The position numbers and the translations under genes are program-made. From Escherichia phage vB_EcoM_SA21RB, in sequence record OL960580: a stretch of DNA of 64,000 bases. The stretch is one strand, 5' to 3'. This document shows, in pieces, positions 1 to 26,806 of this stretch (position 1 is the stretch's first letter; the number at the start of each line of letters is the position of its first letter). Below the pieces are notes generated by a model. It was not told the DNA's origin. It did not search any database and saw only the letters and a list, made by a program, of their open reading frames with translations.

Positions 1-1398
1 CAGGCATTTGGTTCTTTCTTAACAGAAGCTGAAATCGGTGGTGACCACGGTTACAATGCTACTAACATCGCTGCAGGTCAGACTTCTGGCGCAGTAACTC
101 AGATTGGCCCGGCTGTTATGGGTATGGTACGTCGTGCTATTCCTAACCTGATTGCTTTCGATATTTGCGGTGTTCAGCCGATGAGCAGCCCAACCGGTCA
201 GGTATTCGCACTGCGCGCAGTATATGGTAAAGACCCAATCGCTGCCGATGCTAAAGAAGCATTCCACCCAATGTATGGTCCAGATGCAATGTTCTCTGGT
301 CAGGGTGCTGCTAAGAAATTCCCAGCTCTGGCTGCTAGCACACAAACCGTTGTAGGTGATATCTATACTCACTTCTTCCAGGAAACTGGTACTGTGTATC
401 TGCAAGCTTCCGCTGTAGTAACAATCGATGCTAGTGCTACTGATGCAGCTAAATTAGATGCTGAAATTAAGAAACAAATGGAAGCTGGTGCACTGGTAGA
501 AATCGCTGAAGGTATGGCTACTTCTATCGCTGAACTCCAGGAAGGTTTCAACGGTTCTACCGATAACCCATGGAATGAAATGGGCTTCCGTATCGATAAA
601 CAAGTTATCGAAGCTAAATCTCGTCAGCTGAAAGCTGCTTACTCTATCGAATTAGCACAAGACCTCCGCGCTGTTCACGGTATGGATGCTGATGCTGAAC
701 TGTCTGGTATTCTGGCTACCGAAATCATGCTGGAAATCAACCGCGAAGTTGTTGATTGGATTAACTACTCAGCTCAGGTTGGTAAATCTGGTATGACCCT
801 GACTCCGGGTTCTAAAGCTGGTGTATTTGACTTCCAGGATCCGATTGATATTCGTGGTGCTCGCTGGGCGGGTGAATCCTTTAAAGCTCTGTTGTTCCAG
901 ATTGACAAAGAAGCAGTTGAAATTGCTCGTCAGACCGGTCGTGGTGAAGGTAACTTCATTATCGCTTCCCGTAACGTAGTTAACGTACTGGCTTCAGTTG
1001 ATACTGGTATTTCTTATGCTGCACAGGGTCTGGCTACCGGCTTTAACACTGATACTACCAAGTCAGTATTTGCTGGTGTTCTGGGTGGTAAATACCGTGT
1101 ATATATCGATCAGTATGCTAAACAGGATTATTTCACTGTAGGTTATAAAGGTCCGAACGAAATGGATGCTGGTATTTACTATGCTCCATATGTAGCTCTG
1201 ACTCCGCTGCGTGGTTCCGATCCGAAGAACTTCCAACCAGTAATGGGATTCAAAACTCGTTACGGTATCGGTATCAACCCATTTGCAGAATCCGCTGCTC
1301 AGGCTCCGGCTTCTCGCATCCAGAGCGGTATGCCTTCTATTCTGAATAGCCTTGGTAAAAACGCTTACTTCCGCCGTGTATATGTTAAAGGTATCTAA
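1..1398 (+). CDS. 23: major capsid protein gp23, 3' portion (5' end lies upstream of window)
   Basis: Frame 1 is open from base 1 and reads ...AEIGGDHGYNATNIAAGQTSGAVTQIGPAVMGMVRR..., matching T4 gp23; the ORF track starts only at an internal Met (118). Confidence 0.95.
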   Translation, partial: QAFGSFLTEAEIGGDHGYNATNIAAGQTSGAVTQIGPAVMGMVRRAIPNLIAFDICGVQPMSSPTGQVFALRAVYGKDPIAADAKEAFHPMYGPDAMFSGQGAAKKFPALAASTQTVVGDIYTHFFQETGTVYLQASAVVTIDASATDAAKLDAEIKKQMEAGALVEIAEGMATSIAELQEGFNGSTDNPWNEMGFRIDKQVIEAKSRQLKAAYSIELAQDLRAVHGMDADAELSGILATEIMLEINREVVDWINYSAQVGKSGMTLTPGSKAGVFDFQDPIDIRGARWAGESFKALLFQIDKEAVEIARQTGRGEGNFIIASRNVVNVLASVDTGISYAAQGLATGFNTDTTKSVFAGVLGGKYRVYIDQYAKQDYFTVGYKGPNEMDAGIYYAPYVALTPLRGSDPKNFQPVMGFKTRYGIGINPFAESAAQAPASRIQSGMPSILNSLGKNAYFRRVYVKGI

Positions 1399-1411
1399 TC
1401 TTTGACGATTT

Positions 1412-1441
1412 AAGGGACCTTCGGGTCCCTTAGTTGTTTTT
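1412..1441 (+). terminator. intrinsic terminator after gene 23
   Basis: hairpin agggacc-ttcg-ggtccct followed by a T-rich tract. Confidence 0.7.
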
Positions 1442-1445
1442 ATGG

Positions 1446-1453
1446 TATAAATA
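1446..1453 (+). promoter_or_regulatory. T4-type late promoter for gene 24
   Basis: exact TATAAATA about 28 bp upstream of the gene 24 ATG. Confidence 0.6.
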
Positions 1454-1480
1454 AATCATATAAACCAAAAGGAAAGCGCA

Positions 1481-25448: not shown

Positions 25449-25477
25449 AACTTTGTGCAATCTTTGGAAAATAAAAA

Positions 25478-25497
25478 AGGACTCCCGAAGGAGTCCT
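25478..25497 (-). terminator. strong intrinsic terminator
   Basis: minus strand aggactcc-ttcg-ggagtcct followed by TTTTTTATTTT, directly after the small basic ORF stop. Confidence 0.7.
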
Positions 25498-25501
25498 CAA
25501 C

Positions 25502-25678
25502 TTATGCTTTCTGCTTACCAAAACGAGAAGCATCATCTCGAAGAACCGCACGTGCTCGACGCATGATCTTCTCAACAGTTTGATTGATACGAGAGTTCGA
25601 CCCACGCTTGTAGCCAGCGCGTTTAGAATCACCAACTTTCTTTTCAACTGCTTTCTTTGCTTTAACTTGTTTTGCCAT
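25502..25678 (-). CDS. small Lys/Arg-rich protein, probable nucleic-acid binder
   Basis: 58 aa from internal Met with SD AAAAGAGAA: MAKQVKAKKAVEKKVGDSKRAGYKRGSNSRINQTVEKIMRRARAVLRDDASRFGKQKA; the longer 72 aa frame has no RBS. Confidence 0.5.
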   Translation of the reverse strand: MAKQVKAKKAVEKKVGDSKRAGYKRGSNSRINQTVEKIMRRARAVLRDDASRFGKQKA

Positions 25679-26074
25679 TATAAATTCTCTTTTAAATGAA
25701 AATGCAGGACTTATTGGCATTGCCTGCGCAAGCCCTCAAGGGGAACATAGGTTTTGGATATTTAACGACAGGATAACCATAAACCCGTCATCATACCTTA
25801 TAGCTCTTATCTGTTGCACACCGTTAGCTTAAAGGTTCCGGGTCCGATTTCTCGAGGATAAGATATATACTGATGGATATATAGGCCTTGAGGCGTACTC
25901 CCGATTGGCCATCACCTCGGGGTAGCATGCACTTGCCGCTATAAGAATAACATTCAAGAGGTACACCGTAAAACTGCCGGGGTCTTAAAACTATAATGAT
26001 TCGCAAATCATTAATCAGACAGTTCGACGGCTCCTCGTTTTAACTTCACACTAAGGCAGTGACTCTCCAATAAA
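25679..26074. other. GC-rich structured non-coding region (candidate ncRNA or structured intercistronic element)
   Basis: about 400 bp with no plausible ORF; by-eye count of three 60-bp blocks (25801-25980) gives about 43-53% GC against a visibly AT-rich background; multiple potential stems, e.g. ccttgagg/cctcgggg and atgatt-cgc-aaatcat. Confidence 0.3.
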
Positions 26075-26323
26075 TTATTTCAGTGTTACCACAAAGTGAC
26101 GAACTGCTTTTCGTGCAGCAGAAGCCAGAGGCTTAGCATACTTAAGTTCATCTTTTTCCTGAAGCTCAGCAGCTAATGCAGTTTGAGCAGGATTCAGATG
26201 TTTGAAATAACGCAGGATTTCAAGAGCTTCGGCTTCAACATCAATAGATGCGCCATAGTTTTCGTGACCATTATTCCATGCGTTTCGTTGCAGTTCAAGA
26301 GCGTGTTGTAATTGTTTAATCAT
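26075..26323 (-). CDS. rIII: rIII lysis-inhibition accessory protein
   Basis: 82 aa; MIKQLQHALELQRNAWNNGHENYG...; position downstream of gene 31 as in T4. Confidence 0.85.
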   Translation of the reverse strand: MIKQLQHALELQRNAWNNGHENYGASIDVEAEALEILRYFKHLNPAQTALAAELQEKDELKYAKPLASAARKAVRHFVVTLK

Positions 26324-26470: not shown

Positions 26471-26806
26471 TCACTTATAAAGACACGGAATAGCTTTATA
26501 GTGACAGGTAACGAATTTTTGTTTAATTTCTTTTGGCTGCTTAAGACCCAGAGCTACAAAAGGATGCGGAACGTTTCGAATTTGACCAACTGGAAGAGAA
26601 GTCAAATCACCAACTTCGCAGAAACCTTCAGGAACATCAGGACCAACAGAGTGAATTACACACAGTTCAGGAACTTCACCTTGGACACGTTTACCGATAA
26701 TAAGTCCTGATTCTGTAACTTCTTCATCACCGGCTTGTGCAGGTTCAGAAACTAAAATAACATATTCACCGACAGCACGAATTGGTAGCTGTTGTACTTC
26801 AGACAT
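26471..26806 (-). CDS. 31: gp31 co-chaperonin (GroES analogue)
   Basis: 111 aa; [39 protein letters not shown]... matches T4 gp31. Confidence 0.93.

Follow-up and report, generated by a model that had tools for sequence, protein, structure and literature searches.

The question raised by the locus is what purpose is served by the 396-bp gap between genes rIII and 30.9 of Escherichia phage vB_EcoM_SA21RB (sequence record OL960580), of which a stretch of 64,000 nt, referred to below as the window, was analyzed. The original prediction, made from the letters only, had read positions 25679-26074 as a non-coding, structured and functional RNA new to T-even phages, possibly a stable non-coding RNA or a regulatory intercistronic structure. 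The interval is the exact rIII-30.9 spacer, with the rIII stop codon at 26075-26077 and the 30.9 ATG at 25678, and the general reading is borne out by strong covariation in three parts of the spacer and by a nucleotide conservation of one of them (the core) well above that of the neighboring genes. The spacer is non-coding, its functional strand is the minus strand and it is composed of independently folding RNA domains, which are under selection and shuffled among phages. Instead of one RNA, as had been assumed, the spacer proved to be a mosaic of modules, at least five in number, which are independent and differ in their evolutionary history. The explanation adopted here, tentatively and at slightly less than an even chance, is that two of the modules (B and C) form a leader of 30.9 and the other three (M1, M2 and the core) are optional cassettes acting in trans, whose most plausible role is that of decoys against host defence, M1 being a weakened or retargeted decoy of the toxin ToxN.

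Selection on RNA structure in the rIII-30.9 spacer

A blastn search against 50,697 phage records matched the spacer, piecewise, in about 1,000 T4-like phages, and 46 spacers from GenBank phages, IMG/VR and metagenomes were aligned. The window is that of a Tequatrovirus (T4-like) and shows 99% identity to JB75 and ECP2301 over the rIII-30.9 region. Five modules were resolved in it, which in the 5' to 3' direction of the minus strand are M1, M2, core, B and C.

26038..26070, minus strand: M1, a single diverged ToxI-like repeat (pseudo-ToxI), UUGGAGAGUCACUGCCUUAGUGUGAAGUUAAAA, with the hairpin UCAC/GUGA; from the comparison with ToxI
25950..26037, minus strand: M2, an 88-nt irregular hairpin; from RNAalifold and relatives
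25939..25946, minus strand: 5' arm of the core closing helix, UCUUAUAG, A/U-rich; from flank pairing
25804..25938, minus strand: core, a 135-nt multi-helix RNA; from RNAalifold covariation
25796..25803, minus strand: 3' arm of the core closing helix, CUAUAAGG, its last base overlapping the start of B; from flank pairing
25748..25796, minus strand: B, an H-type pseudoknot; from covariation
25679-25747, minus strand: C, hairpins ending at the 30.9 ribosome-binding site
25704..25747, minus strand: first part of C, with the hairpin CCCC-UUGA-GGG (25733-25743), CUUGCG (25727-25732) and stem 2, GCAGG/CCUGC (25723-25727 with 25704-25708)
25679..25703, minus strand: second part of C, a weak hairpin UUUUC (25698-25702) / GAGAA (25685-25689) over the 30.9 Shine-Dalgarno (SD) sequence; from predicted pairing

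Two extra small modules, M3 (T2, VR7 and PhAPEC2) and X (a hairpin with the loop UGUACG), were found in relatives only.

The core is predicted to fold into a long bulged hairpin P1, a hairpin P2 and a long-range stem P3 around a GNRA-capped hairpin and P4. RNAalifold applied to 13 variants gave 39 pairs, and compensatory double changes were present in 17 of these (11/39 on the closer set). Among them, the long-range stem UCUUA/UAAGA is replaced by UCUCA/UGAGA or UUCUA/UAGAA in variants and the GNRA-capped hairpin CGA-GAAA-UCG by UGA-GUAA-UCA. Single-stranded segments of the core (CGGCAAGUGCAUG, GCUAACGG and GCAACAGAU) are invariant. The closing helix comprises 8 bp in the window and on average 5.7 bp vs 3.1 bp for shuffled flanks; the pairing is present in most lineages, with differing sequences. 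The core sequences of Klebsiella, Edwardsiella and Enterobacter phages are 96.3%, 94.1% and 93.3% identical to that of the window, compared with 75.0%, 70.6% and 71.5%, respectively, for rIII DNA and 67-73% for gene 31 DNA. The core is missing from T4, T2 and RB32. Such near-invariance across genera, together with the absence from these three phages, indicates strong nucleotide-level selection, recent exchange, or both. An RNA far more conserved than the genes around it, which close relatives nevertheless do without, is a good candidate for a new phage-host RNA-protein interaction.

In module B, stem 1 is formed by AUGACGGG (25784-25791) and CCUGUCGU (25765-25772) and stem 2 by GGUU (25775-25778) and AACC (25750-25753), with an A-rich third loop (GUUAAAUAUCCAAAA). 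The covariation score of the two 8-pair helices was 0.311 vs 0.145 for column shuffles (none of 500 reached the observed value), and controls with slid partners gave at most 0.119. Four pairs with compensatory changes were present in each helix; GGUU/AACC of stem 2 in the window corresponds to UGUGAG/CUCACA in PG7 and UUAGUAGUU/AACUACUAA in L019. A hidden Markov model (HMM) of B matched 45 of 46 complete spacers, exactly once in each, and had no further match in the 64-kb window; phiR1-RT carries a divergent version. A search of bacterial genomes with a degenerate B pattern returned nine scattered matches at the chance level. The candidate role of B as a recoding signal after the rIII stop codon was rejected, as the distance from B to that codon is anywhere from 3 to >300 nt.

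For M2, RNAalifold gave 25 pairs, six with compensatory changes. Its conserved base is GAGG-A-GCCGU-CGAA ... UUUU-ACGGU-GUA-CCUC and its apical hairpin is capped by UGCG. The palindrome noticed earlier at 25997-26012 is real and corresponds to this apical hairpin, which covaries. A natural mini-M2 with the base kept and the apex missing occurs in teqdroes. No description of the core, of M2 or of B was found in Rfam 15 or in the literature searched.

The motif of C was kept in five of five genera aligned. By eye, with no formal score, exchanges preserving the pairing were seen in hairpin 1 (GCC/GGC in IT22 and GCU/AGC in phiR1-RT) and in stem 2 (GGGAGC/GCUCCC, GGCGA/UCGCC or GGUACC/GGUACC). Equivalents of the hairpin sequestering the SD sequence were present in most other lineages examined, built from other sequences (UCUCC/GGAAGA, CCUC/GAGG), and the energies of these hairpins are small, about -1 to -6 kcal/mol. 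In Jiaodavirus and Karamvirus, stem 2 of C contains an insert of ~45 nt in which GAAAGAA/GGAAGAA motifs recur and GAAA loops are present (CAACCGAAAGAACUGUCGAAAGAAGUUGAACCUCGGAAGAAC). This insert is absent in Tequatrovirus; it was seen in a Klebsiella phage (L004, about 1390-1470, minus strand), PG7, PS2 and L013. The possibility that C mimics a repeat of clustered regularly interspaced short palindromic repeats (CRISPR) was considered and rejected on comparison by eye with the E. coli type I-E repeat, as the shared GUUCCCC is not kept in other genera (GUACCC) and the hairpin has only 3-4 bp.

The original prediction had placed the RNA on the plus strand. The alternation of G-U and G-C at several pairs of the core fits the minus strand only, so the RNA is assigned to that strand. 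Likewise, the proposed plus-strand stem ccttgagg/cctcgggg is part of no supported helix; instead, CCCCGA and UCGGG form a minus-strand helix in which compensatory changes occur.

The predicted lack of a conserved open reading frame (ORF) agrees with the data, as each of the six core frames is interrupted by stop codons in most or in all of 17 variants. The variable columns of the core are distributed over the codon phases as 13/14/15, i.e., without codon periodicity, and the 60-amino acid (aa) ORF at 25824-26006 matched no PHROG family. Records OL362041, PP496997 and NC_055831 have spurious small ORFs annotated over the spacer, some as 'glycogen branching enzyme'. The GC content of the spacer (42.4%) exceeds the window mean of 36.1% and falls in the top 4% of 396-bp windows, in line with the anticipated enrichment; the immediate flanks, expected to be AT-rich, have similar values (41.0% for rIII and 43.5% for 30.9), so the contrast with them is weak. 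The GC content of the core alone is 49.6%. A folding energy better than that of shuffled sequence was not observed (z = -1.16 for the minus and -0.57 for the plus strand; -0.25 for the core, -1.78 for M2 and -1.96 for stem 1 of B), and stability alone would have discarded the region. The search for compensatory changes in alignments of relatives, suggested together with that test, gave strongly positive results for the core, M2 and B.

The view that the spacer is neither a transfer RNA (tRNA) nor a member of a known family was upheld. ARAGORN found no tRNA or transfer-messenger RNA, and no Rfam 15 family, group I introns included, matched at gathering thresholds. At E <= 10 the spacer gave one Rfam match at the chance level (mir-1275, E = 2.3), and nothing was detected at E <= 5 in the spacers of nine relatives with divergent modules. 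Nothing was found in support of a ribozyme, which had also been suggested.

Module shuffling and the origin of M1

The location of the spacer between rIII and 30.9 is constant and its content is not. The following architectures were distinguished.

Window and JB75: M1-M2-core-B-C
T4: M1-M2-B-C
T2: M1-M2-M3-B-C
teqdroes: M1-miniM2-B-C
RB32: B-C (121 nt)
Klebsiella Jiaodavirus: X-B-M1-core-C
Edwardsiella PEi20: B-M1-core-C
Enterobacter PG7: hairpin-core-B-C
EcS1 and L011: C-like hairpin-core-B
L051: B and a GNRA hairpin (105 nt)

The order of modules varies even inside one genus, and the apex of stem 2 of C can house X and M3 (phiR1-RT, MHG19). Modules have also been transferred horizontally into Phapecoctavirus and Vibrio phages. 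In phiWec188 (Phapecoctavirus; L022 1940-2140), a block of ~190 nt composed of M1-M2-M3 is located on the tRNA strand between tRNA-Gln and tRNA-Pro, so that a homologue of M2 lies within a tRNA cluster. The block shows 79% identity to T2- and VR7-type spacers, with compensatory changes, and as other Phapecoctaviruses do not carry it, it appears to have been acquired recently from a T4-like phage. No earlier account of a locus at which several structured RNA modules are shuffled across a phage subfamily, and none of the rIII-30.9 spacer itself, was found in the literature searched.

In a blastn search of two full spacers against 72,556 plasmids, M1 was the only module matched. Its plasmid homologues are 36-nt tandem arrays directly upstream of annotated toxin genes of the ToxN/AbiQ family in E. 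coli, Salmonella, Klebsiella, Yersinia and Pectobacterium. The 36-nt repeat of ToxI, the RNA of the type III toxin-antitoxin system ToxIN, is AGGTGATTTGCTACCTTTAAGTGCAGCTAGAAATTC (PMC4010927). The identities of M1 to this repeat, out of 36 positions, are as follows.

VR7: 32
JS98-like: 31
Klebsiella phage: 30
phiR1-RT: 30
phiWec188: 26
T4: 25
Window: 21

The hairpin of M1 has been maintained by compensatory change, UUGC/GCAG of ToxI being UCAC/GUGA in the window. The descent of M1 from a ToxI repeat is well supported by these comparisons, because orthologous modules match at 30-32 of 36 positions and match ToxI arrays lying beside ToxN genes. A pseudo-ToxI is annotated in the genome record of phiTE and, once expanded, neutralizes ToxN experimentally (PMC3475682).

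The ToxI query matched about 200 phage records of several families. In Vibrio phage JSF10 (L065 701-739) and Salmonella phage Kenya-K36 (L066 701-739), a single ToxI-like repeat on the tRNA strand fills the gap between two tRNAs, and in phiTE (L063 700-758) the ToxI-like element also lies in a tRNA cluster, on the tRNA strand. Unlike in these three phages, the ToxI-like repeat of Kuravirus XT32 (L064 701-740) is located between the terminase and portal genes. Placement in tRNA clusters is the one expected of small RNAs freed by tRNA-processing enzymes.

Transcription unit and candidate functions

The genes of the region are all encoded on the minus strand in the order cd, 31.2, 31.1, gene 31 (26471-26806), rIII, the 396-bp gap, 30.9, a terminator and 30.8. 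The immediate neighbors of the spacer are listed below.

26075..26323, minus strand: rIII (82 aa), upstream neighbor; from the ORF list, annotated as rIII in JB75 and T4
25502..25678, minus strand: gene 30.9 (58 aa, Lys/Arg-rich), downstream neighbor; from the ORF list and start-codon alignment
25477..25498, minus strand: intrinsic terminator with a 9-bp stem and a T run, ending the rIII-spacer-30.9 transcription unit; also annotated in JB75

The basic 58-aa ORF noticed downstream of the spacer is therefore gp30.9, followed, as had been stated, by a strong terminator (25477-25498). The protein belongs to PHROG 1427 (function not assigned), matched zero Pfam families and gave zero credible PDB sequence matches; its homologues are almost confined to T4-like phages and metagenome contigs. 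In an old UniProt entry gp30.9 is lengthened to 97 aa ('11.1 kDa protein in Gp30-rIII intergenic region'). In the metagenome contig QZLZ01027750.1 (L037), a frame-blind translation upstream of 30.9 diverges from residue 22 back toward the N-terminus and the spacer length is inconsistent (about 260 vs 137 nt), which may reflect a rearranged variant or a scripting or assembly artefact. A sub-threshold Rfam match to the Rhizobiales small RNA (sRNA) Atu_C8 was obtained on the minus strand at 25463-25546 (31 bits, E = 4e-4, gathering score 50). It spans the 3' end of 30.9 together with the terminator hairpin and looks like a generic terminator match. No terminator-like sites were found inside the spacer and no sigma-70-like promoter was detected there by a consensus scan; the sole promoter-like match overlaps the rIII stop codon, and the count did not exceed that of shuffled sequence.

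According to the explanation adopted here, the spacer would be transcribed from the minus strand between rIII and 30.9, together with both as far as the consensus scans show, as five RNA domains joined in a mosaic, with separate helices closing each of them. B and C would represent the ancestral 30.9 leader, ending in a helix occluding the SD sequence, and would probably set 30.9 translation or messenger RNA (mRNA) stability. M1, M2 and the core would be optional cassettes inserted, deleted and reordered by recombination among T4-like phages, with M1 derived from the ToxI antitoxin RNA of the ToxIN abortive-infection systems. We infer that the transcript is processed and that the cassettes, excised from the mRNA, act in trans in an anti-defence role, as decoy or mimic RNAs aimed at host defence or at RNA-targeting factors. 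M1 of the window would then be a diverged ToxN decoy.

Several observations weigh against the decoy role. B is universal and not accessory, which fits a role in cis better than one in an arms race. The identity of the M1 copy of the window to ToxI is marginal when taken alone, as shuffled versions reach up to 26 matches, and an HMM of ToxI and M1 trained without the window and T4 copies had its best match in the window exactly on M1 with only E = 0.085, so that this copy is to be regarded as a diverged descendant. M1 is not tandemly repeated; there is one copy per spacer, no second HMM copy in the window and one place per phage record. ToxI units are flanked by the ToxN processing motif AA^AU. 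In the window AAAU lies only upstream of M1, at the rIII stop codon (CUGAAAUAA), and the sequence 3' of M1, UUAAAACG, has no AAAU; the Klebsiella, VR7 and JS98-like copies of M1 have GAAAAU on their 3' side. Wild-type phiTE, with 1.5 repeats, is still aborted by ToxIN, and escape mutants have more (PMC3475682), ToxI itself having 5.5. The M1 copy of the window may thus not act on classical ToxN. M2, the core, B and C had no counterpart in the 72,556 plasmids, in 5,426 E. coli genomes or, as an exact pattern, in GTDB species genomes, and with no bacterial counterparts detected, nothing identifies what they would mimic. Finally, the folding energies given above are unexceptional, and a T4 omics paper makes no mention of rIII or 30.9.

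A bolder version of the proposal is possible but unlikely. The whole spacer would in that case be a dedicated RNA counter-defence island and recombination hotspot of self-folding decoys, each directed against a different RNA-binding or RNA-guided immune effector of the host, with the ToxI-like M1 as the sole example that can be recognized. The core, which hardly varies among several genera of phages, would represent a novel class of RNAs for anti-defence or host takeover.

The main competing model holds that the spacer acts purely in cis, as a leader or intercistronic regulator in which all modules, the optional ones included, tune 30.9 translation, the coupling of rIII and 30.9, or mRNA decay (protection against RNase E or RegB). 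The constant position between rIII and 30.9, the occurrence of B in 45 of 46 spacers and the recurrence in most lineages of an SD-sequestering hairpin with different sequences all speak for it. The protein gp32 binds a pseudoknot in the T4 gene 32 leader, and gp30.9, being small and Lys/Arg-rich, might by analogy bind its own leader. Furthermore, the GGAG motifs of M1 and M2 look like RegB sites, and the neighboring RIII protein is reported as a RegB modulator (PMC9409239). Nevertheless, the distance from B to the 30.9 start codon extends from about 60 to >300 nt across relatives and the order of modules is permuted. The M1-M2-M3 block is functional, or has at least survived, in a tRNA cluster that lacks a neighboring 30.9, M1 comes from a trans-acting antitoxin, and the conservation of the core exceeds the need of a tuning element, yet close relatives do without it. 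The purely cis-acting model is accordingly considered unlikely for the spacer as a whole, while being the strongest competitor of the leader-and-cassette explanation. The evidence on the earlier suggestion of a riboswitch-like leader is mixed; the SD-sequestering hairpin and the conserved structured domains upstream agree with it, whereas the order of the domains and their spacing (about 60 to >300 nt from B to the ribosome-binding site) vary widely.

It is rather improbable that the modules are stable small RNAs unrelated to defence, processed like T4 rnaC and rnaD, which are released from the tRNA cluster, and modulating, for example, host translation, RNA decay or transcription. Each domain has its own closing helix, with A/U-rich linkers between the domains, the invariant single-stranded segments of the core are those expected of an RNA contacting a conserved partner, and a homologous block resides among tRNA genes. 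On the other hand, the modules have no sequence similarity to rnaC or rnaD, no target was identified, and an essential housekeeping role is hard to reconcile with the presence/absence polymorphism seen in near-identical phages.

Promoter/stem-loop cassettes in the hyperplastic regions of T4-type phages are mobile structured sequences, and the shuffling of the spacer modules and their horizontal transfer into Phapecoctavirus and Vibrio phages would also suit recombination cassettes that are selfish or neutral and bring the phage no benefit. This alternative is very unlikely, as the spacer has no sigma-70 promoter, the single-stranded segments are extremely conserved, and the compensatory substitutions keep helices on one strand only, which reveals selection at the RNA level. 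That the spacer encodes small proteins, such as the 60-aa ORF or the ORFs annotated in GenBank, is scarcely credible despite the gene callers placing ORFs over it in several records, since no frame is open across the core variants, codon periodicity and PHROG matches are missing, the annotated ORFs vary by record, and indels and module swaps break every frame.

Comparison with known systems

T4 is among the best-annotated genomes, yet its reference record contains a 244-bp version of the rIII-30.9 spacer without annotation. If the interpretation given above is true, T-even-like phages carry conserved structured RNAs forming a family that Rfam does not contain, and have a site at which such RNAs are exchanged in the manner of protein anti-defence genes in accessory regions. 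From the promoter/stem-loop cassettes of T4-type phages the modules differ in that no early sigma-70-type promoter is present inside the spacer.

The pseudoknots of the TenpI and CptI type III antitoxins consist of a stem 1, an A-rich loop and a covarying stem 2 within about 45-50 nt (PMC12283969, PMC5086642). B shares this general architecture only; no bacterial-locus sequence was matched by B and, unlike these antitoxins, B is never tandemly repeated.

Like T4 rnaC and rnaD (species 1 and 2), the modules are compact structured RNAs of T-even phages, and a homologue of M1-M2-M3 is found in the tRNA cluster of phiWec188. They differ from these RNAs in sequence, in genomic location and in being placed within an mRNA; when the spacer was compared by blastn-short with the T4 tRNA/rnaC/rnaD region, chance words of 9-14 nt were all that emerged, none of them inside rnaC or rnaD. 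Nor was a second copy of any spacer module found in the window.

With the leader of T4 gene 32, B shares an H-type pseudoknot in the 5' leader of a gene encoding a small, nucleic-acid-binding-like protein of a T-even phage. The pseudoknot upstream of 30.9, the feature looked for in a leader of the gene 32 type, is supported by covariation and present in 45/46 spacers. Unlike in gene 32, the stretch separating B from the ribosome-binding site has structure and varies in length instead of being unstructured, and no similarity in sequence to the gene 32 pseudoknot was established.

The closest known system is the pseudo-ToxI of phiTE. Both it and M1 are phage-encoded, non-coding homologues of the ToxI repeat, located on the transcribed strand and present in a low copy number, and M1 is, as judged by its sequence, a further pseudo-ToxI, a type already known. 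phiTE carries 1.5 repeats, and more in escape mutants, whereas M1 of the window is single, strongly diverged and without a 3' AAAU. Unlike the phiTE element, M1 is part of an mRNA, where it lies between two genes and is accompanied by four structured modules unrelated to it. ToxI-like repeats are often located in tRNA clusters, and phiTE is the sole phage with an experimental demonstration of RNA antitoxin mimicry. M1 would extend such mimicry beyond phiTE, and the spacer modules offer a concrete set of RNAs of about 35-150 nt testable against ToxIN and other defence systems.

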